DNA of 64,000 nt from an uncultured Christensenella sp. (GTDB lineage: Bacteria > Bacillota > Clostridia > Christensenellales > UBA1750). The position numbers were made by a program, and so were the translations under genes. Positions 19,958 to 59,576 of this stretch are shown piece after piece; the stretch's first letter is position 1; each line of letters opens with the position of its first letter. The stretch covers positions 28,811-92,810 of the forward strand of contig CAOKIU010000001.1 in assembly GCA_948468595.1 (NCBI GenBank), written 5' to 3'. The notes beneath the pieces are model-generated. The model searched no databases and was not told where the DNA came from. It saw only the letters and a program-made list of their open reading frames with translations.

Positions 19958-20033
19958 GGGGCATTAGCACAGTTGGTAGCGCGCAACGTTCGCAATGTTG
20001 AGGTCAGGGGTTCGAATCCCCTATGCTCCACCA
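19958..20033 (+). tRNA. tRNA-Ala (anticodon CGC), CCA encoded
   Basis: Cloverleaf read by hand. Acceptor GGGGCAT/ATGCTCC includes the G3:U70 alanine identity pair. Anticodon stem CAACG/TGTTG, loop TTCGCAA, T-arm AGGGG-TTCGAAT-CCCCT, 3' ACCA. One D-stem mismatch. Confidence 0.9.
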
Positions 20034-20035
20034 AA

Positions 20036-20072
20036 AACAAGCTGAAACTAAAGGTTTTCAGCTTGTTTTTTT
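20036..20072 (+). terminator. Rho-independent terminator after tRNA-Ala
   Basis: AACAAGCTGAAA-ctaaagg-TTTCAGCTTGTT followed by TTTTTT. Confidence 0.85.
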
Positions 20073-20283
20073 GTGCAGCCTGATTCTGATTTTGCTGCGT
20101 CATCGGGCGTGGCTTCATGCTATGGTTAACCCACAATATGGTCACCCGTCGAAAGGCGGGCGGCCATCCTCCATTTGGACGTTGATCTATCCGCTCTTCC
20201 AGCTTCGAACCACGCGCCTTTGTTTTCTCACAAACATGCCGGTTTTTCCCCTTTGTGGAGCAAATCTTGCCATCGTAAATAGA

Positions 20284-20344
20284 ACAAAGATCACTGCGTG
20301 GCAGTGATCTTTGTGGTTATAGATCTCCGCTCGCGGAGATTTTT
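20284..20344. terminator. Two adjacent stem-loops (bidirectional terminator region) downstream of the lipoprotein gene
   Basis: Perfect 14-bp arms acaaagatcactgc/gcagtgatctttgt at 20284-20314. Then atctccg-ctcg-cggagat plus TTTT at 20323-20344. Confidence 0.65.
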
Positions 20345-20362
20345 CATTTGAGATGCGTGGGG

Positions 20363-21169
20363 TTAATTAAAATCGAACTGTATCTGCATCGGATAAGCCC
20401 AGACCTTGTAGTCTGCGATTTTTTCGCTGGTAACGAAAGAGGGCAGCATGATGCCGCTCACCTCAAATCCAATCTTCTGAGCGGGCGCAAGTTCCTCGGT
20501 AATGATGGTCCCTACGATGCCCAATACCTCTCCGGCATCATCGTAGAGCACAACCGTCACATATGTCATCTTGCTTGCTTCGTCGGACGTGTTTTCCACA
20601 CGGCCTTTGATCTTGAGATCGGTATAGGTATCGCCGGAAATCTTGACATCCGATGTTGCATATCGGATCAGATCCACAGTCGCCTCTCTGACATCTTCGC
20701 GCGGCAAGAGGACTAAATCACCTTCCACAGCTTCATCTAGCGTTGCGGTTTCGTACATATATCCAACTTCACCGGGAGCAATAACGTTGGGATATGCGGA
20801 GAACATACTTGAAGAGCAGACCAGCGCCCCGGCAGAGTCCTCAACATCGTACGCGCCGCTGGACAGATATAGGTTGGTATCGCCAGTGTTCTTAATCTCT
20901 ACCAGAGCCTGAATCCAAGTGGTCCCGATGCTGCTCTCCCACAAGGTGGCGGCTTGCTTGGTCAATTCATACTGCGCGCCAGTGGCAGATTCTTGGGAGG
21001 GTTCGGGCTCTGTTGCCGGTTCGGTATCGGTCTGCGCAGGAGAGGCGTCTCCGGTTGTTTGAGGGGCGGGAGTGCCATCCAAATCCACCTTGTCGTTCCC
21101 AGAGGGCGAGCATGCGCAAAGCATGGCAACCAGTAGCAGGGTCATCGCGATCAAAATCCAGCGTTTCAT
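20363..21169 (-). CDS. Hypothetical lipoprotein (two internally similar beta-rich modules)
   Basis: Signal peptide MKRWILIAMTLLLVAMLCAC with a lipobox, then a Thr/Pro/Glu linker. RBS AGGAGGATTTAAG. GC content is visibly lower than the surrounding genes. Confidence 0.7.
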   Translation of the reverse strand: MKRWILIAMTLLLVAMLCACSPSGNDKVDLDGTPAPQTTGDASPAQTDTEPATEPEPSQESATGAQYELTKQAATLWESSIGTTWIQALVEIKNTGDTNLYLSSGAYDVEDSAGALVCSSSMFSAYPNVIAPGEVGYMYETATLDEAVEGDLVLLPREDVREATVDLIRYATSDVKISGDTYTDLKIKGRVENTSDEASKMTYVTVVLYDDAGEVLGIVGTIITEELAPAQKIGFEVSGIMLPSFVTSEKIADYKVWAYPMQIQFDFN

Positions 21170-21229
21170 CTTAAATCCTCCTGTGTGTATGTTTTTATCT
21201 GAACATCAATTACAATGAGTAAACATCCC

Positions 21230-21266
21230 ATAAAATGAGAATAACTCTGCACGTTACGTGCAGAGT
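21230..21266 (-). terminator. Intrinsic terminator inside the leader of the lipoprotein gene
   Basis: Minus strand reads ACTCTGCACG-taa-CGTGCAGAGT followed by TATTCTCATTTTAT. It lies about 65 nt upstream of the lipoprotein RBS. Confidence 0.7.
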
Positions 21267-21519
21267 CTCACCTTAACCCCAGAGATTGCGAATATGTAAT
21301 TGATGGTAACATTGCGTCGATCTCTTATCAATAGCAGCGGGGCTGTTCTTAAGATATCTATGACGACCAGTATTGATCGACAATAGCAGGAGATTGCTTT
21401 CCTCCTTCAAACCCGTCCAAACAAATATCCAACGCTTCCTTCACATCTAGCGTCGTATAAGGAATTTCAAATGCTTTAGATCATGTGTCCCAGCAAATCA
21501 TTTATCTATCCCTTATCAC
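21267..21519 (-). ncRNA. Candidate structured leader or cis-regulatory RNA (class unknown)
   Basis: This is the region between a consensus promoter (21526-21554) and the terminator at 21230-21266. It has no ORF with both a start codon and an RBS. Nested complementary segments can be drawn: AUAAGGGA...UUCCUUAU enclosing AAAUGAUUU...AAAGCAUUU. CUGCUAUUG occurs twice. Confidence 0.35.
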
Positions 21520-21525
21520 GCCAAC

Positions 21526-21554
21526 ATTATATACCAGCTCCCAAAATTTGTCAA
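21526..21554 (-). promoter_or_regulatory. Consensus sigma-A promoter (TTGACA-17-TATAAT)
   Basis: Minus strand reads TTGACAAATTTTGGGAGCTGGTATATAAT. Both hexamers and the spacer length are perfect. Confidence 0.75.
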
Positions 21555-21566
21555 GAAAGGGACGCG

Positions 21567-21884
21567 ATGCCGTCGTATGTCCGTTCGATAGTCGAATATC
21601 AAGCGCAAAAATCGTCTATACACTCTTATGAAACTAGAACACTTTCGGATCGCATTGCATTCCTTGGCCCTATGTCCGATGCCGTATACGAGCACAACGT
21701 CGAACGCTTCATCGAGGTTCTTCAAAGATGCGCAGCACCCGCATTTGCAGGTCGTGGAGGCGCAGGAGGCGCGCTTTGCGCTTTTGGCGTGGCGGTCTCC
21801 TTCCTCTCTGCCAATGATTACGACATACGCGACATCTGCATTGAGGAGAGCATCCTTTGGCAGATCTATCAAGATAGGATTTGA
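21567..21884 (+). CDS. Hypothetical protein (doubtful)
   Basis: 105-codon ORF starting MPSYVRSIVEY, with a weak AAAGGGA RBS. An overlapping minus-strand ORF (21516-21872) is about equally plausible or implausible. I recognise no family. Confidence 0.2.
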   Translation: MPSYVRSIVEYQAQKSSIHSYETRTLSDRIAFLGPMSDAVYEHNVERFIEVLQRCAAPAFAGRGGAGGALCAFGVAVSFLSANDYDIRDICIEESILWQIYQDRI

Positions 21885-21899
21885 CCAAGGGAAAACCCT

Positions 21900-22355
21900 T
21901 CAGCTTTTCCGCTCCTCTTCCTCCTTCCTCCTCCGGTATTGCCCGATCATTCCATCGTATTTTCTGCCGGTGATCCGGAAATAGATGTCAAAGCCGACGG
22001 TCATCGCCGCAAAAATGAGGAAGAAGATGCCGATGAACATCGCCCATGCCCCTACCTGATCCGTTGGGAACCAATCCGCTTTCCAAGCGGTGAAGGACAG
22101 TACCGGGAGAAACAGCAGCACGAATAGCAGGCTTCGCCATGTGTACCGCATCTTTTTGATGATCCAGTCGGAAAAGCACACGGCCTGGATCAGCGATCCG
22201 GCGGCGCTGACCAACAACAGGCCCCACAGGAGGGCGGTTGAAACTACTCGATTGTCAAAGATGAGGCTGAAAAATAGATAGATGACCATGGCGGCGGTAA
22301 ACAACATGCACGCCGATGTCTTCCATTCCACGATGCCCTTGAGAAATCTCTTCAT
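21900..22355 (-). CDS. DUF3021-like membrane protein, putative inhibitor partner of the LytTR regulator
   Basis: Four TM segments and a C-terminal basic/acidic tail. Its start ATG overlaps the LytTR stop as ATGA at 22352-22355. The longer 185-aa ORF in the track is an N-terminal over-extension. Confidence 0.65.
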   Translation of the reverse strand: MKRFLKGIVEWKTSACMLFTAAMVIYLFFSLIFDNRVVSTALLWGLLLVSAAGSLIQAVCFSDWIIKKMRYTWRSLLFVLLFLPVLSFTAWKADWFPTDQVGAWAMFIGIFFLIFAAMTVGFDIYFRITGRKYDGMIGQYRRRKEEEERKS

Positions 22356-22810
22356 TTGAGGATGCTCCTTTCCGCCTGCTGTAGTTTTTCCTTCAGCTCT
22401 TCGGCATACTGGCGGGAAACCCAGACCTGTTCGCCGTTGTCCATGGTCACCAACCACCGCCTGCCCAATTCCGGGCGAACAGACCGCACGCGGCGAAAGT
22501 TGAGAATGGTGGACCGCCCCGCCCGGAAGAAGTCCAATTCTCTTAAGGACTCCTCCAATTCATATAGGCGCAGGGCGCTTTGATAGACGGCCTTCTCCGT
22601 GTAGAGGAACGTTTTTTTGTCCGCCGTGTCGATATAGAGGATGTCCTTCGTGTCCAGCAGATATCGTTCACCGTCCAAAATGCCGACCAGCTTCTTCTGG
22701 TATACGCGCAGCATGGCTACGAGCCTCAATACATCCTCGTCCGCTTGAGAACAGTTGATGATGACCTCTGTTTCCGCATATGATGGGTCTTGATTGAGCG
22801 TGATTTTCAT
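22352..22810 (-). CDS. LytTR family DNA-binding protein (stand-alone, no receiver domain)
   Basis: 152 aa. The LytTR signature is spread through ILYIDTADKKTFLYTEKAVYQSALRLYELEESL...FFRAGRSTILNFRRV. RBS AAAGGAGGAG. Confidence 0.8.
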   Translation of the reverse strand: MKITLNQDPSYAETEVIINCSQADEDVLRLVAMLRVYQKKLVGILDGERYLLDTKDILYIDTADKKTFLYTEKAVYQSALRLYELEESLRELDFFRAGRSTILNFRRVRSVRPELGRRWLVTMDNGEQVWVSRQYAEELKEKLQQAERSILK

Positions 22811-22831
22811 AGGGCTCCTCCTTTCGTGATC

Positions 22832-22859
22832 AGTTTAGCAGACAAAGATCGGATTGCAA
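22832..22859 (-). promoter_or_regulatory. Putative promoter of the LytTR operon
   Basis: On the minus strand: TTGCAA, 16-nt spacer, TAAACT. Confidence 0.4.
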
Positions 22860-22990
22860 TATGATTTTCCTCTGTGACCTTTTTCTTGCCCTGAGATGCA
22901 CAATGCAACGGCTGAATCGCAGGGGCGCGCGCCCGCCGTTCATACGCAGAGGGGAAAAAGAGCGCGCTGCCGCCTTAAAAACGCCATCAC

Positions 22991-23023
22991 AAAAGCCCCC
23001 TGATGATTTTTCAGGGGGCTTTT
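22991..23023. terminator. Bidirectional stem-loop terminator
   Basis: AAAAGCCCCCTGA-tgatttt-TCAGGGGGCTTTT. It is flanked by A-runs and T-runs on both strands. Confidence 0.75.
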
Positions 23024-23067
23024 GTATCTGCCGCGCGCAGGTCAATGCTTGGCCGTCTTCCGCTTGC

Positions 23068-23256
23068 TCAACGCGCCTTCATGTAGTGCTGCGCCAGCGC
23101 ATGCAGGTCGTCTTCGGTGGTGATGGCCCCTGCCTTGCGCAGCATCTTGGCCTGCACTTCCTCCGGCAAGGAGGAAAAGTACTCGTTGGCGGATGGACTG
23201 TGCTCCATCAGCTCGTGAAATCCCTTCGGACCATAGATGTTGTATCCGCCGTCCAT
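23068..23256 (-). CDS. Small hypothetical protein (62 aa)
   Basis: Sequence MDGGYNIYGPKGFHELMEHSPSANEYFSSLPEEVQAKMLRKAGAITTEDDLHALAQHYMKAR. GAGGTGA lies 5 nt upstream of the ATG, and the upstream gene stop lies within that RBS. Confidence 0.45.
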   Translation of the reverse strand: MDGGYNIYGPKGFHELMEHSPSANEYFSSLPEEVQAKMLRKAGAITTEDDLHALAQHYMKAR

Positions 23257-23261
23257 GCCCG

Positions 23262-23501
23262 TCACCTCGTTTCCCTTTCGGCGTCTTTTTTCTTGGGAAT
23301 CTCCATCCCGTACATCTCTTGCAGGTTCTCGTATTCCTCGGCGTTTTCCGGCTTTCTCGGGAATAGGCCCGTGCATTCCTGCGCCGAGACCGTGCTGGTC
23401 ATGTCGGGAAAGACCTTGTCCTGCTCCATATACTTCGCAAGCGAGTCATTTTTCAGCTCTTCCACGTGCAGAGCGTCCACGTTCCGCGGATCTTTTTCCA
23501 T
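23262..23501 (-). CDS. Small acidic hypothetical protein (79 aa)
   Basis: Starts MEKDPRNVDALHVEEL and includes ECTGLFPRKPENAEEYENLQEMYGMEIP. It is tandem with and closely coupled to the 62-aa gene. Confidence 0.45.
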   Translation of the reverse strand: MEKDPRNVDALHVEELKNDSLAKYMEQDKVFPDMTSTVSAQECTGLFPRKPENAEEYENLQEMYGMEIPKKKDAERETR

Positions 23502-23553
23502 TTAAAAACACCTCCACGGCATTAGTATCCCGTGAAGGCGTCAAAAGCATGCT

Positions 23554-23817
23554 CTATTTTTTTCGGTCCACCGCGGCCTGCTTCCACATCTGGTAGTACC
23601 ATTGGCTCATCGCGGCCGCCACCACGCCCTGTGTCGCTCCCTCCATCAGCCATGTTCCCACCTGCCCGCTCTTCCACGTCGACGCCAATCCCAGCGCCAC
23701 GCCCGCCGCCGTCAATGCCCAGGGAATTGCCCAGTTCTTGACGTGCGGCGTGCGCTTGAGCAACACACCCAGCGCGCAAAGCAGCAGCGGCGCGGTGGTC
23801 ATCGGACCCATCAACAT
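23554..23817 (-). CDS. Small two-TM protein, phage-holin-family-like
   Basis: TM1 is TTAPLLLCALGVLL. It is followed by KRTPHVKNWAIPWALTAAGVALGLA and an amphipathic tail GVVAAAMSQWYYQMWKQ, which recalls clostridial phage holin family proteins. The start is uncertain and there is no clear RBS. Confidence 0.4.
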   Translation of the reverse strand: MLMGPMTTAPLLLCALGVLLKRTPHVKNWAIPWALTAAGVALGLASTWKSGQVGTWLMEGATQGVVAAAMSQWYYQMWKQAAVDRKK

Positions 23818-23906
23818 TCTGGATAACGCTTCCAATCGGCATCCCCCCGCAAAAGGGTATGCCAAGGAGCGGCAAAACATGAAGCGCTTTTCAACGATTT
23901 CGAGGG

Positions 23907-25064
23907 TTAGATTTGCCGGTCAAAGAGCTCCGGCCGCAGCAACCCGCCCTGGCCGGTGACAAGGCTTTGCACGGTTTGAGCTGTGGGCGCCGCGCCGCGC
24001 TGCGCCTGCCAGGAAGCGGCGAGCCCCGCGGCTTCTCCCGTCACCGCGCAGGTGGGAATGACGCGCGTCAAATCCCAACCGCTCTTTTCCGCGCAGCAGC
24101 AGCGGCCCGCGGCATAAAGGTTTGAAAAGGTCTCCGCCTTTATGGCGCGATAGGGAATGCTATAGCGGTGACCGCTCTTCTTCCAATTGCCGATCATGCC
24201 AATGGCGTCGTGAAACCACACGTAATCGTGCGCATCCTCGGAAAAGTGTGCGCTCGTCTCCAATCGCCGCGTCATGCGCAGGCCGTGATAGGCGGGGATG
24301 AGCAGCGGATAGGCGCCGGGATTGCCGCCGGCGCGAAGGTCGCGCACATGGTTCAGAATCATCGCGCGCTGGTCGATGAGGCTTTGCGTGATTTCCTCGG
24401 GATCGGTGCCGGAATAGAGGCGCGAACCCTCGGGAATCTGGGTATAAATGGGGTCGGTCTGCTGGTGGAGGCGCAGCGCCTCGCCGTCAAAGCTGTAGTA
24501 CCAGCCCGTGCGGCGGTTGGTCGGGTCGTCCACGGTCTTTTCTCCCGCGAAAAAGCACAGGTCCGCATCCCCAGTGCAATCGACAAACGCAGCGGCCTCC
24601 ACCTCCATCCGCCCGCGCTTGGTTTCCACCCAAATGGACCTGACGCGCCCGCCCTCCGTCTCCGCGCCCGACAGGCGCGCGTCATAGAGCAGTTTGACGC
24701 CCGCGTCCAGCAGCAGTCGCTCCGCCGCGATCATCATGGACGCCGCGTTGTAGGTCACTTGGTAGCGCACGCCGCGCCGCGCCTCCTGGGGCGCGTTCTC
24801 GTCCGCCCATGCGCTGGGAATTTCCCCCGGGCCGATTTCCAGCGCGCAGCGCAGCAGCTCTTCGCTCAGGGATGCGGACATCTTGACCCCCAGGCCGTCG
24901 TCCAGGGGCAGGTAGACCACGATCAGCCCCAGCGTCGCCAGCCCGCCCAGCGCGTACTCCTTTTCCACAAGCAGCGTCTCGGCGCCGCTGCGCGCGGAGG
25001 CCAACGCCGCGGCAATGCCCGCCATGCCGCCGCCCAGCACAACCACGTCCGTCTTCATCCTCAT
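23907..25064 (-). CDS. FAD-dependent oxidoreductase
   Basis: N-terminal DVVVLGGGMAGIAAALASARSG...LLVEK dinucleotide-binding fold. 385 aa. Confidence 0.7.
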   Translation of the reverse strand: MRMKTDVVVLGGGMAGIAAALASARSGAETLLVEKEYALGGLATLGLIVVYLPLDDGLGVKMSASLSEELLRCALEIGPGEIPSAWADENAPQEARRGVRYQVTYNAASMMIAAERLLLDAGVKLLYDARLSGAETEGGRVRSIWVETKRGRMEVEAAAFVDCTGDADLCFFAGEKTVDDPTNRRTGWYYSFDGEALRLHQQTDPIYTQIPEGSRLYSGTDPEEITQSLIDQRAMILNHVRDLRAGGNPGAYPLLIPAYHGLRMTRRLETSAHFSEDAHDYVWFHDAIGMIGNWKKSGHRYSIPYRAIKAETFSNLYAAGRCCCAEKSGWDLTRVIPTCAVTGEAAGLAASWQAQRGAAPTAQTVQSLVTGQGGLLRPELFDRQI

Positions 25065-53823: not shown

Positions 53824-53864
53824 CGTCCCCGCTGAATCTGTAAAGAGCGGCTTTTCCATAAAGG

Positions 53865-53900
53865 GGCCTCCGCGCAGTTAAACTGCGCGGAGGCCTCTTT
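53865..53900. terminator. Bidirectional stem-loop terminator
   Basis: GGCCTCCGCGCAGTT / AACTGCGCGGAGGCC followed by TCTTT. Confidence 0.8.
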
Positions 53901-53913
53901 GCGGCGGTTCTAA

Positions 53914-55485
53914 TCAGGAATCGAGCTTTGCCAGCATGCTGCCGAACCCCCGGCGGATATTATGCCTTTGCACCAACAGCGATAGGGCGACGAGCGCCGC
54001 GTCCAGGACCAGGAGCGCGCCGGTCCACATCGACAGGCCAAAGATCAGGCCCGCGACCACAAAGCCCGTCAGCATGGTCGCCAGCACGCTCATGCTCTGC
54101 TTGACCACGGCCGTCTCCGTCTGCCAATCCAGTTTGGGCATTTTTAGGTTGAAATACAAGCCCGTAGCCGCGGAGAACAGCGCGCAGGCCAAGGGCGTGA
54201 CCAGGGCCGCAACCGCCTTAATCGGCGGCAAGCGCAGCGCGAAGACGAGGATCGCCGCGCTGATCAAGGCGGCCGGCGCCGTGACCAGCAGATTGACGGC
54301 GATCTTAGACCACAGGTAGGCCGCGGTGCGCACCGGCATGGCGCGCATTGCGCAGAAGGACTTGCCTTCCAGGGAAATCGCGCAAGCCGTGGTGGAGCTC
54401 ATCACCACAAACAGCGATAGGATAGCCGGCACAAACGTCTGCATGTACTGGGCGATCATCGGCGTGTCCATCATGCTCTCCAGCTTTTGCGGGGAAATAA
54501 CAGCCAGAAAGAAGCTGAACAGGAGCATCAGAATCGCGCCGAATCCCGTGTTGAGCACGTAGATGGGGATGGCGAAATACCGCTTGAGTTCATGGCATAT
54601 CAGCGCCTTGCGGGGCGTGCGCACGGCCTGCGGCCGGTCCCCGCCGCGCGCGCGGCGGGCACGCGGCGTGAGCAGGACGGCCAGCCTGTCGTAAAACGTG
54701 GAGATCAGCCACGCGCTGAGCGCAAAGCAGCCCGTGCAAAGCAGCGCAAAGCACAGCGTTTCCAGCGCGCCGCCCATTGTCGCCTTGTAGAGAAGCGAGA
54801 AGGGGAAAATCCCGGCAAGGCCGTCAATCATGCCCGCAATCCCGCTAAGATCGCCCTGCGCGATGGTGAAATTGAGGGAAAAGCTCAGCGCCATGACCAG
54901 GCCAAAGAAGGCAAAGCCCGCGATGATATTGATCGCCTTGCTGTGCATAAAGCGGGAGGTGACGCGCAACAGCAGGCATCCCAGCACCGCGCTGATCGAA
55001 ACCGATAGCAGCGGCGAGAGCAGGGCGCAGAGCGCAAAGCAGAGCACCGGAACGGCGCCAGGTTGGGCCAAGACGGCATACACCGCCACCGCGGGCAGCA
55101 GAACCAGGTAAGCCGTCACCGCGTCAAAGGAGGTCAGCACCAGGATGCGCGAGGCCACCAAGGTGCGCGTGGGAATGGGCATGGCCAAGAGCGCATCCTG
55201 ATTGCGAAACTTAAAGAGCACGTTTTCCACGCGGAAGGTCGTCGTTATCAGGGGAAAGACCAGGGAAAGGGCGAGGGCGAGCATGGGCAAAACGTCCAGC
55301 GCGCCCATTTGCTGGAGCAGTTCGGCAATGCCAAAGAGGTATATCCCCACGCAATAGAGCACCGCCACGCCCACCAGCACCGGCCGGAGGGCGGCGCGGC
55401 CGGCGCCCTTTTGCCGGTGTAAAAAGCGGTTGATCCCATAAATGGACATCAAGTCCGGCTTCATCAATTGAAACAGCGTCTTCAT
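53914..55485 (-). CDS. Large polytopic ABC exporter permease (putative ABC-exporter family)
   Basis: 523 aa with many TM segments. Its start ATG overlaps the ATPase stop as ATGA at 55482-55485. The 580-aa ORF in the track is over-extended. Confidence 0.65.
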   Translation of the reverse strand: MKTLFQLMKPDLMSIYGINRFLHRQKGAGRAALRPVLVGVAVLYCVGIYLFGIAELLQQMGALDVLPMLALALSLVFPLITTTFRVENVLFKFRNQDALLAMPIPTRTLVASRILVLTSFDAVTAYLVLLPAVAVYAVLAQPGAVPVLCFALCALLSPLLSVSISAVLGCLLLRVTSRFMHSKAINIIAGFAFFGLVMALSFSLNFTIAQGDLSGIAGMIDGLAGIFPFSLLYKATMGGALETLCFALLCTGCFALSAWLISTFYDRLAVLLTPRARRARGGDRPQAVRTPRKALICHELKRYFAIPIYVLNTGFGAILMLLFSFFLAVISPQKLESMMDTPMIAQYMQTFVPAILSLFVVMSSTTACAISLEGKSFCAMRAMPVRTAAYLWSKIAVNLLVTAPAALISAAILVFALRLPPIKAVAALVTPLACALFSAATGLYFNLKMPKLDWQTETAVVKQSMSVLATMLTGFVVAGLIFGLSMWTGALLVLDAALVALSLLVQRHNIRRGFGSMLAKLDS

Positions 55486-56195
55486 TCGTCCACCAGCTCC
55501 AAAAAAACGTCCTCCAGCGAGCGGTCGTGCAGGATCTCGTGCATGCCGCCGGCGCAGAGCAAGCGCCCCTCCTTGATGATGGCCACGCGGTCGCACAGCT
55601 TTTCCGCCACGTCCAGCACATGGGTGGAGAAGAAGATCGCGCCGCCGCGGCCGCACAGTTCATGCATCATCTGCTTTACGGTAAAGGCGGCCTTGGGGTC
55701 AAGGCCCACAAAGGGCTCGTCCAGGACCAGCAGCTTGGGCTCGTGCAAAAAGGCCGCCACAAAGGCGAGCTTCTGCTTCATGCCGTGCGAATAGCCGCCG
55801 ATCAGCTCGGCCAGCCGGTCGTAGATCTCCAGCTCCTTGGCGTATTGCTCGATGCGGCGCCGGCGGGTTTCGGCGTCCACCCGGTAGATGTCGGCGACAA
55901 AGCGCAGGTACTGCCACCCGGTCAGGTGGTCGTAAAGATCGGGATTGTCGGGGATATAGGCCAGGATGCTCTTGCAGGCAAGGGGTTCCTGGGCAAGGTC
56001 GTGCCCGTCGATGGTGATTTCCCCGCCATCGTAGGCGAGCGCGCCCACCACGGCCTTGATGGTGGTGGTCTTCCCCGCGCCGTTGTGGCCGATAAAGGCG
56101 AAGATCTCTCCCGACGCCACCTCCAAGGAGAGGTCGTCCACAGCCGGGCGCGAAGCCCCGCGGTATGTCTTGGTCAAGTGCTCTATTTTCAGCAT
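55482..56195 (-). CDS. ABC transporter ATP-binding protein
   Basis: Walker A GHNGAGKTT, signature YSHGMKQKLAFV, Walker B LLVLDEPF. Confidence 0.9.
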   Translation of the reverse strand: MLKIEHLTKTYRGASRPAVDDLSLEVASGEIFAFIGHNGAGKTTTIKAVVGALAYDGGEITIDGHDLAQEPLACKSILAYIPDNPDLYDHLTGWQYLRFVADIYRVDAETRRRRIEQYAKELEIYDRLAELIGGYSHGMKQKLAFVAAFLHEPKLLVLDEPFVGLDPKAAFTVKQMMHELCGRGGAIFFSTHVLDVAEKLCDRVAIIKEGRLLCAGGMHEILHDRSLEDVFLELVDE

Positions 56196-56219
56196 GGCAG
56201 GTTTCCTCCAAAGGGCGAC

Positions 56220-57494
56220 CTAGATCAGAAGGTCGATGAGGTTCTCCAAGTGCGCGCGCGTCTTTGCAAGCATGCCGGCGGCGCAGGCCATGGAGATATT
56301 GTTCTCGTCAAAGCAGAGCGACAGTTGCAGGCAGGGGTAGACCTCCATCGCGTCGCCGTCAACGCGCCAGGCATCGTGCACGGCCGGCACGAGGAAACAG
56401 GGCGCGCCCCCCGCCGTACACATGGCCCCGGTGATGCCGTAATCGCCGAGATCGCACACGTTGGGCAGGTCGCGGCCGCTCATGCCGCGAAGGGTGCCGT
56501 CCCCCACCTCGTCCAGCAGGGCGGCGGAATCGGTGTGCATGGCGGCAAAGCGCACCATCGCGCTCACGCTCACGCCCGTGCGCGACGCAATTTCCATGCA
56601 GACGGTCATATCCACCTGCGCGGTCAGGCACGCGGGGCGGGGCATGGGCGCGGATTCCTCCGCCTCCGTATCCTCCGCTTCATCCGCCTGGGGCACGGCC
56701 TCCAATGCCTCGGGAATCGGGTCCGGCTCCTCCTCCAGCTCCTCCTCCGCAGGCGCTTCCTCCGCGATGGGTTCCTCCTCAGCCGCGACAGGCGCTTCTT
56801 CCGCTTCCGCGGCGGGTTCCGTCTCCGCCTCTATGGGCGCTTCTTCCGCGGGTTCCTCCTCGGGCACGGCGGGCGCTTGCTCTGCGGCAGGTTCCGCTTC
56901 CGCCTCCGCGGGCGCTTCTTCCGCGGGTTCCTCCTCGGCCTCTATGGGCGCTTCTTCTGCATCAGATTCTTCTTCCGCTGCATCCTCTTGCGCCAATTCC
57001 TCTTCTTGCAAGGGTTCCTCCGTCAGCGGGGTTTCCTCTTGCGCATCGCCGTCTACCTCCCGGAAAAGCTCTTCCTCCATCGCGGCCTGTTCGGCGGCAT
57101 CCTGCGCCTCCTCCTGGGCGGAGACCTCCTCCGCATCGGATTCCTCATCCGGCACGGGATCTGCCGGGGCGATGTCCGCCTTGGGCGCTTCCCGAGGGGA
57201 GAGGGGCTTGCTCTCATCCACAAACTGCATGCGGCCCATCTTCAGCACCGCGTCCGGCGCGGGAGAGGCCAGCATGCCCACATCCGCCGGGCAGTGAACC
57301 AGCTCGCCCTCGGGCACAAAGATGGCGACCAGCCGCCCCGCCTTCTGCGACTTTACGGTGAAGGTGCCGTCATCGGTGTCAAAGGAGAACAGTTCGTCGC
57401 CCTGCGCGACCCAATCCCCCGTCTTTTTAAACCAACTGGTGATCATGCCGGTTTCGTCTTTTTTGCCGCGGCTGGGCATTTGAATCACTGCCAT
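56220..57494 (-). CDS. Degenerate 2-oxoacid dehydrogenase E2-like protein (lipoyl-like domain without the lipoyl Lys, acidic repeat linker, truncated catalytic-like domain without the catalytic His)
   Basis: The N-terminus MAVIQMPSRGKKDETGMITSWFKKTGDWVAQGDELFSFDTDDG parallels the E2 lipoyl domain, but ETDKA is replaced by DTDDG. The C-terminus LSLCFDENNISMACAAGML parallels LSLSFDHRVIDGA, but DHR is replaced by DEN. Start at 57494 with GAGGG 9 nt upstream. Confidence 0.6.
   Translation of the reverse strand: MAVIQMPSRGKKDETGMITSWFKKTGDWVAQGDELFSFDTDDGTFTVKSQKAGRLVAIFVPEGELVHCPADVGMLASPAPDAVLKMGRMQFVDESKPLSPREAPKADIAPADPVPDEESDAEEVSAQEEAQDAAEQAAMEEELFREVDGDAQEETPLTEEPLQEEELAQEDAAEEESDAEEAPIEAEEEPAEEAPAEAEAEPAAEQAPAVPEEEPAEEAPIEAETEPAAEAEEAPVAAEEEPIAEEAPAEEELEEEPDPIPEALEAVPQADEAEDTEAEESAPMPRPACLTAQVDMTVCMEIASRTGVSVSAMVRFAAMHTDSAALLDEVGDGTLRGMSGRDLPNVCDLGDYGITGAMCTAGGAPCFLVPAVHDAWRVDGDAMEVYPCLQLSLCFDENNISMACAAGMLAKTRAHLENLIDLLI
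56640..57130 (-). repeat. Imperfect tandem repeats encoding a Glu/Ala/Pro-rich linker
   Basis: Repeated peptide units such as EEAPIEAE(E/T)EPA(E/A)E and EEEPAEEAP, with matching repeated DNA (gggcgcttcttccgcgggttcctcctc...). Confidence 0.8.
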
Positions 57495-57671
57495 ATGCAT
57501 AAACCCTCGCTTTCGCACGCAATTCCTTTCAGACTGCCTAAATTATACGTTGGGATGCGCTGGGTGTCAACAAAACGCGGCCACAAACAAAATTCCCGTG
57601 CATGAAAGCGGCGTTTATGCTACAATGATATTTGTAAAGGTTTACTCACCTCCCATGGAAAGGGGAAAACC

Positions 57672-59576
57672 ATGATTGTTCTGCAAACCAACCAACTGAC
57701 AAAGTCCTTTGGCGTTGTGGAAGTGCTCAAGGGCGTGACGCTGACGGTCCAGGACCACCACCGCGTGGGCCTGGTGGGCTCCAACGGCTCCGGCAAATCC
57801 ACGCTGCTTAAAATCCTTAACGGGCAGGACGTCTACGACGGGGGCACGCTGAGCATGACCCGCGGCCTGCGCATCGGCTTTCACACGCAGATGGACGACC
57901 TAAACTCTCCGCTTACCGTCTGGCAGGAGATGGAGACTTGTTTTGAAGATACATTTAAGATGGAGGAACGTCTGCGCCAGATGGAGCTCCGCATGGGCGA
58001 GATCCATTTTAGCGACCCTGCGGGCTTTCAGCGGCTTTCGGAGGACTACGCCAAGCTCACCGACCGCTTTGAGGAAGAGGACGGCTACAGCTGGCGCTCG
58101 CGCATTCAGGGCGTGCTCACGGGCCTGGGCTTTACGCAGGCCCAGTACGGCCAGACGGTCGCCTCCCTCTCGGGCGGCGAGCGCACGCGGCTGAAGCTGG
58201 GCAAGCTGCTGCTGACTCGCACCGACCTTCTGCTGCTGGATGAGCCGACCAACCACCTGGACTTAAGCTCCATCGCCTGGCTGGAAGACTACCTGCGCGC
58301 CTACAAGGGCGCGGTCGTGGTGGTCTCGCACGACCGCTATTTCCTTGACGCGGTGTGCAATTCCATTGCGGAGCTCTCCTTTGGCCGCGTGGAGCAGTAT
58401 GAGGGGAACTATACCCGGTACTTGAAGCTCCGCGAGGAGGTCATGGTGCGGCGCATGAAGGAATACACGCTCCAGCAAAAGGAGATCGCCCGCGAGGAAG
58501 CCATCATCGCACAATTCCGCGCCTACAACACCGAGGCGGCGCACATCAAGGCCAAGAGCCGCGAAAAGCGACTGAACATGATCGAGCGCGTGGACAAGCC
58601 CGTGGAAGAGCACAACGTCTATTTCCATTTCCACGCGGGGCGCGGCACGGGCAACGACGTGCTGATGGCGGAAAACCTCTCCAAATCCTACGGCCCGCGC
58701 CAGCTCTTTCACGGCCTGAACCTGCATGTGCGCGCGGGCGACCGCATCGCGCTGCTGGGCGCCAACGGCGTGGGCAAGTCCACCCTGCTCAAGATTTTGA
58801 TGGGGTTGGAGCCGCCCGATACCGGCAGCGCTCGCTTTGGCTCGGGCGTGGAGGTGGGCTACTACGACCAGCAGCAGGAGGGACTTTCGCCGGATAAGGA
58901 CGTGCTCAACGAGGTGTGGGACGACTTCCCGCGCATGGAGCAGACGACCATCCGCAACGCGCTTGCGGGCTTCCTCTTCACCGGCGACGATGTCTTTGCG
59001 CCGGTGAGCACGCTTTCGGGCGGCGAGCGCGGGCGCGTGCTGCTGACCAAGCTGATGCTCCGGCAGGACAACTTCCTGATCCTGGACGAGCCCACCAACC
59101 ACCTGGATATGGACAGCCGCGAGATGCTGGAAACAGCGCTGCTGGGCTTTGAGGGGACCATCCTCACGGTTTCGCACGACCGTTACTTCATCAACCGCAT
59201 CGCGGACCGCGTGGTGGTCATGGAGCCGGACGGCGTGACGGAATACATCGGCAACTACGACGACTACCTGGAAAAGTCGGCGCAAAAGGCGCTTCCCGAG
59301 GAAGAGACGACCCAGGCCAAGACCAAGACCGCCCTGCGCGAGGAGAAGAAGCGCGAAAAGGCGGCGCAGGAGGCGGCGCGCCGCGAGCGGGAGCGCATCG
59401 CCAACCTGGAATCCCGCATCACCGACCTAGAAGAGCAGATGACGCAAATGGAAATCGAGATGAGCGATCCCGATACTTACGCCGACAGCGCGCGCGCCCA
59501 GTCCCTGAGCAAGCGCTACGCCGCGCTGCAAGACAAGGTCGCCGCGCTGTACGAGGAATGGGAGGCGGCGCAATGA
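57672..59576 (+). CDS. ABC-F family ATPase (Uup/YdiF-like translation-associated ABC protein)
   Basis: Two NBDs (GSNGSGKST, GANGVGKST; signatures LSGGERTRL, LSGGERGRV), no TM domain, and a C-terminal coiled coil. Confidence 0.85.
   Translation: MIVLQTNQLTKSFGVVEVLKGVTLTVQDHHRVGLVGSNGSGKSTLLKILNGQDVYDGGTLSMTRGLRIGFHTQMDDLNSPLTVWQEMETCFEDTFKMEERLRQMELRMGEIHFSDPAGFQRLSEDYAKLTDRFEEEDGYSWRSRIQGVLTGLGFTQAQYGQTVASLSGGERTRLKLGKLLLTRTDLLLLDEPTNHLDLSSIAWLEDYLRAYKGAVVVVSHDRYFLDAVCNSIAELSFGRVEQYEGNYTRYLKLREEVMVRRMKEYTLQQKEIAREEAIIAQFRAYNTEAAHIKAKSREKRLNMIERVDKPVEEHNVYFHFHAGRGTGNDVLMAENLSKSYGPRQLFHGLNLHVRAGDRIALLGANGVGKSTLLKILMGLEPPDTGSARFGSGVEVGYYDQQQEGLSPDKDVLNEVWDDFPRMEQTTIRNALAGFLFTGDDVFAPVSTLSGGERGRVLLTKLMLRQDNFLILDEPTNHLDMDSREMLETALLGFEGTILTVSHDRYFINRIADRVVVMEPDGVTEYIGNYDDYLEKSAQKALPEEETTQAKTKTALREEKKREKAAQEAARRERERIANLESRITDLEEQMTQMEIEMSDPDTYADSARAQSLSKRYAALQDKVAALYEEWEAAQ

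Follow-up and report, generated by a model that had tools for sequence, protein, structure and literature searches.

An E2-derived protein without lipoyl lysine and catalytic histidine at the head of an ABC exporter operon in an uncultured Christensenella

What becomes of a dihydrolipoyl acyltransferase (E2) that has lost both its lipoyl lysine and its catalytic histidine, and why does the gene for such a protein stand in front of an exporter? The question is raised by three minus-strand genes that lie in the same direction at 53914-57494 of a 64-kb stretch of DNA from an uncultured Christensenella sp. (contig CAOKIU010000001.1 of assembly GCA_948468595.1, positions 28,811 to 92,810; the whole stretch is called the window below). 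The first gene encodes a protein that we call pseudo-E2; it is followed by genes for an ATP-binding cassette (ABC) ATPase and for a polytopic permease. The original prediction ascribed to the first protein the layout of an E2, with a lipoyl-like N-terminus, a flexible linker, and an acyltransferase-like C-terminus, described both key residues as lost, and proposed that the protein serves the exporter as a docking or regulatory subunit. Sequence profiles and a modeled fold confirm the layout, and the E2-derived identity of the protein without the two residues is supported. Thus, pseudo-E2 is an E2-derived pseudoenzyme, and it belongs to a small, taxonomically narrow family.

Over residues 3-67, the Pfam profile Biotin_lipoyl (PF00364) matches the N-terminal domain with an E-value (E) of 2.7e-9; the score is 37 bits, and the cut-off is 22. 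E2 models of NCBIfam match this region through their lipoyl parts, with E as low as 2.3e-11. A phmmer search retrieves lipoyl domains of E2 proteins from PDB (best E 9e-9), and lipoyl domains of 'protein X' are also found among these matches. In the phmmer alignments, the segment FSFDTDDGTF pairs with SIETDKVTI of the PDB E2 chains, so that Asp42 occupies the position of the lipoyl lysine. Hence the predicted loss of this lysine in the sequence D-T-D-D-G is borne out, within a significant profile match. The same position is occupied by Asp, Glu, or Asn in all 11 full-length relatives examined, and because of these residues lipoylation of the domain should be impossible. The ratio of nonsynonymous to synonymous substitution rates (dN/dS, Nei-Gojobori method) is 0.05-0.2 for this domain.

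The C-terminal domain is far more divergent in sequence. The Pfam profile 2-oxoacid_dh (PF00198) matches it below threshold (E 0.13; score 12 bits, cut-off 23), and the match is limited to the last 50 profile positions; the same profile matches 4 of the 11 family members, with the best E of 0.0018. A profile of the family compared with PDB ranks four E2 cores at the top, with E from 0.055, which is below threshold, and hhalign comparison with an alignment of canonical E2 domains (loci L013-L032) yields E 3.3e-4. Search of PDB by phmmer with the C-terminal domain alone gave chance matches only. Nevertheless, every weak sequence match of this domain shares a single register, in which F-D-E stands opposite (F/Y)-D-H. 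In this register the catalytic DHRxxDG reads DENNISM, with Glu397 in place of the histidine and Ser-Met in place of Asp-Gly. The profile comparison therefore left the homology of the C-terminus below threshold, while the register and the substituted histidine were consistent throughout.

The assignment is settled, as far as a model can do so, by structure prediction. The AlphaFold2 model of the C-terminal domain, built from a ten-sequence alignment, has a mean predicted local distance difference test (pLDDT) score of 94.1 and a predicted TM-score (pTM) of 0.88. In a Foldseek search of PDB with this model, the top 50 matches are all cores of E2 or of the E3-binding protein E3BP (E 1e-7 to 6e-5, TMq 0.62-0.81), the E3BP model 6h60 being at rank 43. 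Thus, the domain is predicted to have the E2 core fold despite sub-threshold sequence similarity, and the short acyltransferase-like C-terminus of the original prediction is best described as a reduced E2 core. About 204 columns of the Foldseek alignments correspond to a 142-residue query, which points to large internal deletions and not just to truncation at the N-terminus. The domain has about 140 residues compared to about 230 in a normal E2 core, that is, it is about 90 residues shorter. Hand alignment to the canonical domains suggests two missing parts, namely the N-terminal arm (about 30 residues) and a stretch of about 50 residues with central strands and one helix. The loss of the catalytic histidine in FDENNISM is upheld by the relatives, in which Glu or Arg is found at this position in 11 of 11 full-length sequences. 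The protein terminates with Leu-Leu, which is invariant, plus Ile or Leu in most family members, and dN/dS of the domain is 0.09-0.57.

The two domains are joined by a linker of 198 residues, among them 65 Glu, 45 Ala, 26 Pro, and 13 Asp; acidic residues number 78 and basic ones only five. It had been described as about 190 residues of Glu/Ala/Pro repeats. Its length and composition agree with this description, whereas true tandem repeats cover only about 80 residues (56740-56978) and are degenerate, with periods of 36, 45, and 75 nt. Across species the linker varies in sequence and in length (128-211 residues) and is always strongly acidic (38-78 acidic residues vs. one to seven basic). Variation of repeat number among strains, which the original prediction had suggested checking, is not seen within the species: all four full-length members of the 90% identity cluster have 424 residues, and the pseudo-E2 of the nearly identical locus L001 differs from that of the window by one substitution and an assembly gap. 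In the AlphaFold2 model the linker is disordered except for a weak helix at residues 130-145. This helix coincides in part with an acidic amphipathic motif, EE[EQ][LI][LF]xx[VIL], that is semi-conserved: of the 11 family members examined, 7 have one or two copies of it. It is a candidate short linear motif for binding. In the window, the motif occupies residues 140-147 (57053-57076, in the context MEEELFREV); it was also seen in the linkers of the relatives P0121, P0122, P0125, and P0126 and in loci L002 and L010.

The family is small. Exhaustive HMMER search of 1.84 billion representative proteins with the C-terminal domain produced 11 matches, of which six or seven are full-length; canonical E2s were absent from the result. 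A word-index search for homologs retrieved nothing for the C-terminal domain and fragments for the N-terminal one; this is a miss of the method and not absence of the family. Among 185,579 species genomes, the gene was found only in metagenome-assembled genomes (MAGs) named Candidatus Spyradocola, Christensenella sp., Catabacter sp., and 'uncultured Clostridia', and all named sources are MAGs of the Christensenellaceae type. Thus, judging from the genomes searched, the family appears to be confined to gut Clostridia of this type. The window itself is 99% identical to GCA_948992415.1 and, by identity of the neighboring ABC-F protein, is closest to a Candidatus Spyradocola MAG (93%).

With a single promoter box upstream, tight junctions, and a hairpin behind the last gene, the three genes appear to form a single transcription unit in this genome. 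The 24-nt gap between the pseudo-E2 and ATPase genes contains a GGAGG ribosome-binding site, and the stop codon of the ATPase gene overlaps the start of the permease gene in ATGA. The earlier description of the operon layout, with its 24-nt gap, ATGA coupling, and 523-residue permease, is thus confirmed by the coordinates, and promoter, spacings, and terminator agree that pseudo-E2 heads the operon. The hairpin is positioned between convergent genes and is likely the operon terminator; it was not listed by a scan with the terminator consensus, since its T run is short. A longer open reading frame (ORF) for pseudo-E2 with a GTG start begins at 57518. The ATG at 57494 was preferred as the start because relatives begin at MAVIQMP. 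The same perfect promoter box occurs upstream of pseudo-E2 in 18 related loci (e.g., L002 2967-2995 and L039 232-260), and its conservation suggests strong constitutive expression. No Rfam match was found inside the operon. PADLOC assigned neither pseudo-E2 nor the permease to a defense system and yielded only generic ABC/AAA matches for the ATPase.

The second and third genes have the features of an ABC-2-type exporter, that is, a nucleotide-binding domain with Walker A (GHNGAGKT), signature (YSHGM), and Walker B (LLVLDE) motifs and a polytopic permease. The NCBIfam drrA subfamily model matches the ATPase with 190 bits, under the cut-off of the model. The permease has no Pfam match of its own; its homologs at 25-47% identity carry PF16949 and PF09847. 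At E up to 0.001 there are 139 homologs, most of them with these Pfam domains and typically encoded in ATPase-permease pairs, and a crude hydropathy scan of the permease gives 14 hydrophobic windows, some of which overlap. Both proteins are ordinary members of a set of Clostridia exporters in which permeases of about 530 residues are combined with ABC-2/DrrA-like ATPases. The pair follows pseudo-E2 only in this small clade, and elsewhere it stands alone or beside helix-turn-helix (HTH) regulators; homologs of the permease at about 33% identity occur in ATPase-permease pairs without a lipoyl-like gene. We also note that the signature YSHGM differs from LSGGQ; xSxGM variants are known from ABC ATPases of the bacitracin and lantibiotic type.

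Conserved linkage to the ABC genes, on which a role of pseudo-E2 in export would rely, is not observed. Three loci alone have the exporter pair behind pseudo-E2: the window, L001, which is nearly identical to it, and L002, which represents one other species. It is missing in L009, L010, L011, L012/L033, L036, L039/L042, L040, and L049. In L039, the flanks are those of the window, with ABC-F on one side and the PHP gene, a gene for a 187-residue protein, and an aminotransferase gene on the other, and nothing lies between. The interval from the pseudo-E2 stop codon to the convergent PHP gene (53824-56219 in the window) is thus a variable slot that holds the ABC-2 pair, nothing (L039), or a gene for an oxidoreductase dependent on flavin adenine dinucleotide (FAD) (L040). 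Between the cassettes of the window and L002 (53914-56195 and L002 4291-6581), divergence is uneven, as the ATPases are 80% and the permeases only 47% identical; the ABC-F proteins of the two loci are 83% identical. In the neighbor-joining tree of ABC-F, these two cassette-bearing lineages are not sisters. The operon arrangement thus looks ancestral to a part of the clade and repeatedly lost, and in the simplest history the cassette would have been lost from an ancestral operon on at least two occasions, with pseudo-E2 always retained. Because it stayed when the cassette was lost, pseudo-E2 does not need the exporter, and the pair is best seen as a probable facultative passenger that uses the pseudo-E2 promoter.

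By its architecture, pseudo-E2 corresponds to the E2 of 2-oxoacid dehydrogenases (PF00364, PF02817, and PF00198), with the same order of a lipoyl-type domain, an Ala/Pro linker, and a chloramphenicol acetyltransferase-like core, and for both of its domains the best sequence and structure matches are E2s. At the same time, it lacks the lipoyl lysine, the peripheral-subunit-binding domain, the histidine and aspartate of DHRxxDG, and the genomic context of E1 and E3, and for these reasons should not be filed as an E2. In addition to the shortened core, the linker differs in being polyanionic and 5-10 times longer; linkers of usual E2s have 20-40 residues. The absence of E1 and E3 nearby, already stated in the original prediction, was upheld: none was called within about 5 kb of pseudo-E2, and in a limited tblastn check, with the large ORFs of six loci that encode canonical E2s as queries, the only match in the window was the lipoyl domain. 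No E1, E2, or E3 genes were seen in about 20 related loci.

On balance, and with somewhat better than even confidence, we consider pseudo-E2 to be a stand-alone, non-catalytic scaffold or adaptor of E2 origin that works independently of the exporter. The C-terminal domain would self-assemble like E2 cores, which are textbook self-assembling scaffolds, into trimers and possibly into assemblies of higher order. This is suggested by retention of the core fold in the model and by the invariant hydrophobic C-terminus. The latter may form a knob for the higher-order assembly, since the C-terminus of E2 cores is the inter-trimer knob. Assembled cores would then display multiple conserved N-terminal domains on long acidic tethers of 130-210 residues, and each of these lipoyl-type domains would be a protein-binding module for a partner, with no carrying or transfer of acyl groups. 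The gene would be driven by its own conserved promoter, as a monocistronic unit in most species; in this genome, the two-gene ABC-2 exporter cassette, placed between pseudo-E2 and the terminator, would be co-transcribed. Oligomerization, the scaffold role, and the strength of expression are what we infer from these features. A bolder form of the same idea, which we regard as doubtful, is a natural non-enzymatic particle, in which E2-type cores self-assemble into trimers or a small cage that carries lysine-less domains on tethers of about 200 residues and serves, in abundance, as a hub or a polyanion scaffold.

Several observations weigh against the scaffold reading. In canonical E2 cores, about 30 N-terminal residues add to the trimer contacts, and these are the residues missing in pseudo-E2. 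In the full-length AlphaFold2 model the N-terminal domain is poorly modeled (pLDDT 37-57), so that its fold is assigned from the profile matches only and we make no structural claim about the tip of its hairpin. Further, a functional tie between the exporter and pseudo-E2 is possible in the lineages of the window and L002, since the spacing of 24-25 nt is kept there though the permeases are only 47% identical.

The last point leads to the alternative that was originally proposed: where the operon is retained, if not more widely, pseudo-E2 would be a cytoplasmic subunit of the ABC-2 exporter with an accessory, docking, or regulatory role. The window and L002 do share one promoter, the same 24-25-nt and ATGA junctions, and one terminator, and the identity levels of the ATPase and ABC-F fit vertical retention of the operon. 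However, the pair is absent in at least seven other lineages that keep an intact pseudo-E2 under purifying selection, the flanks in L039 are identical but enclose no cassette, ATPase-permease pairs homologous to this one are found elsewhere without pseudo-E2, and the ATPase is a bare nucleotide-binding domain of 237 residues with no additional docking domain. The proposal of a subunit thus finds no support in the comparison, and we regard it as quite unlikely. A further alternative, an adaptor working with the exporter in the manner of the membrane-fusion proteins HlyD and MacA, is effectively refuted by the assignment of the E2 fold and retains hardly any probability. It could draw on the adjacent ABC exporter, on a weak sub-threshold match to the Pfam profile Biotin_lipoyl_2 (E 0.057), and on a weak match to the NCBIfam model NHLM_micro_HlyD (E 0.82); moreover, lipoyl-type domains of HlyD, MacA, and AcrA are also lysine-less barrel-sandwich hybrids encoded beside exporters. 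But those proteins are membrane-anchored and extracytoplasmic, with a hairpin and a barrel, whereas pseudo-E2 is predicted to be cytoplasmic. It has no signal peptide or membrane anchor (maximum 19-residue hydropathy 1.46, and the N-terminus lacks a hydrophobic segment), no alpha-hairpin or beta-barrel HlyD domains, and no matches to HlyD Pfam profiles. Membrane-fusion proteins have a split lipoyl domain, while that of pseudo-E2 is contiguous and scores best against E2 models, its C-terminus has the E2 core fold, and the ABC linkage is not conserved.

Another possibility, improbable in our view, is a bacterial counterpart of E3BP, an auxiliary subunit that would insert into or bind a genuine E2 core of a 2-oxoacid or acetoin dehydrogenase, encoded at another place in the genome, and would tune assembly or recruit a peripheral enzyme, like E3BP of eukaryotes. 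Indeed, E3BP (protein X) is what pseudo-E2 most resembles: it is an E2 paralog with a dead acyltransferase-like domain, which in mammals lacks the catalytic histidine and in fungi is a catalytically inactive, fold-reduced core-binding domain homologous to the acetyltransferase (PMC10156792). The presence of 6h60 in the Foldseek list and of protein X lipoyl domains among the phmmer matches agrees with this likeness. On the other hand, E3BP keeps the lipoyl lysine lost here and has an E3-specific binding domain, for which no counterpart is found in pseudo-E2, as E3_binding (PF02817) has no match at E up to 1. E3BP is eukaryotic and acts inside a real pyruvate dehydrogenase core, neither of which is seen for pseudo-E2, and the window (within the limited check) and the related loci provide no E1, E2, or E3 gene. 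The hosts are strict anaerobes, expected to rely on pyruvate:ferredoxin oxidoreductase. Finally, one could regard pseudo-E2 as a decaying pseudogene or as an assembly or sequencing artifact of a real E2, given that both key residues are missing, the core is shortened, and the metagenomic copy in L049 is cut to 93 residues. The comparative data refute this explanation, to which we assign almost no weight. Orthologs do not retain the lysine or the histidine, and because 11 of 11 full-length relatives show the same kinds of substitution, the double loss is not a sequencing error. The ORF is intact in more than 10 species or strains, the exact sequence recurs in several independent assemblies, and the family-wide substitutions together with dN/dS well below one and the conserved promoter therefore indicate a maintained gene and not an error or a decaying relic. 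Thus, a stand-alone scaffold or adaptor of E2 origin is the reading that we retain.

Features of the locus and genes that follow pseudo-E2 in related loci
Feature	Position	Strand	Description
Pseudo-E2 gene	56220-57494	minus	424 aa plus stop; lipoyl-like domain, polyanionic linker, reduced E2-core-like domain
Lipoyl-type (barrel-sandwich hybrid) domain	57231-57494	minus	residues 1-88; Asp42 codon 57369-57371
Glu/Ala/Pro acidic linker	56637-57230	minus	residues 89-286, 198 aa; predicted disordered
Reduced, catalytically dead E2-core-like domain	56223-56636	minus	residues 287-424, 138 aa; Glu397 codon 56304-56306
ABC ATPase, ABC-2/DrrA-like type	55482-56195	minus	237 aa; Pfam ABC_tran E 7e-27
Polytopic permease	53914-55485	minus	523 aa; family of about 530 aa, 'putative ABC exporter / 12TM', of Clostridia
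Sigma-70-type promoter box TTGACA-N17-TATAAT	57542-57570	minus	12/12 matches; 48 nt upstream of the pseudo-E2 start codon
GC-rich hairpin with short T-containing tail	53858-53895	minus	GGCCTCCGCGCAG-TTTAA-CTGCGCGGAGGCC-CCTTTAT; 18 nt past the permease stop; read from sequence
ABC-F protein, Uup-like	57672-59576	plus	634 aa; C-terminal coiled-coil; Pfam ABC_tran (two), ABC_tran_Xtn, ABC_tran_CTD
Locus L039/L042			after pseudo-E2: convergent PHP gene directly; flanks otherwise as in the window
Locus L007			after pseudo-E2: terminator right behind the stop
Locus L040			after pseudo-E2: FAD oxidoreductase, opposite strand
Locus L049			after pseudo-E2: two-component system; PHP gene not detected there
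Locus L009			after pseudo-E2: GNAT gene; MerR/GyrI gene upstream
Locus L012/L033			after pseudo-E2: HTH gene
Loci L011, L036			after pseudo-E2: zinc-finger gene; ABC-F not nearby

The divergently transcribed ABC-F gene is the commonest neighbor of pseudo-E2, but it is not universal. It is absent beside the gene in L011 and L036, a MerR gene breaks the adjacency in L009, and L010 shows a similar gap. A functional link between ABC-F and pseudo-E2 was therefore not adopted, and this neighborhood is treated as plain synteny that provides context only.

Some loci and annotations have peculiarities of their own. In L009 (5094-6116), the upstream MerR/GyrI-like ORF overlaps the start of pseudo-E2 by 116 nt. 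The shortened pseudo-E2 copy in L049 (2014-2295) reflects a frameshift or an assembly error. Loci L005 and L006, both from the MAG JBMNOF01, are two different ABC-F/pseudo-E2 loci, with ABC-F proteins 93% and 88% identical to that of the window; this bin probably combines more than one strain or species. Elsewhere in the window (19958-24000), about 4 kb of low-GC DNA (49-56% vs. about 62%) lie behind a tRNA-Ala(CGC) gene (19958-20033) and contain ORFs without Pfam matches and a gene for a LytTR DNA-binding protein (22352-22810, minus strand). This stretch is possibly a small island; an integrase gene was not seen in it.

Current annotation of the family is uneven. The relative P0124 is named 'pyruvate/2-oxoglutarate dehydrogenase complex dihydrolipoamide acyltransferase (E2)' in IMG and 'lipoyl domain-containing protein' by PGAP. 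Names such as 'lipoyl domain-containing protein' or 'E2 component' could lead metabolic reconstructions of these genomes to infer, falsely, a dehydrogenase for pyruvate or 2-oxoglutarate. A literature search on lysine-less lipoyl domains, bacterial E2 pseudoenzymes, and lipoate or pyruvate metabolism of Christensenella found no relevant paper.

In summary, the association with an exporter, which is the most unusual-looking aspect of the locus, is not general in the family. To our knowledge, the only well-known dead E2 paralog is E3BP, which is eukaryotic and still bears lipoate. If pseudo-E2 does form a self-assembling particle, it would be the first bacterial E2 pseudoenzyme with a role wholly uncoupled from 2-oxoacid oxidation. 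Both E2 folds have remained under purifying selection even though the swinging-arm lysine, the active site, and the binding domain were lost, which indicates that the E2 scaffold can be reused in these bacteria for functions beyond acyl transfer.

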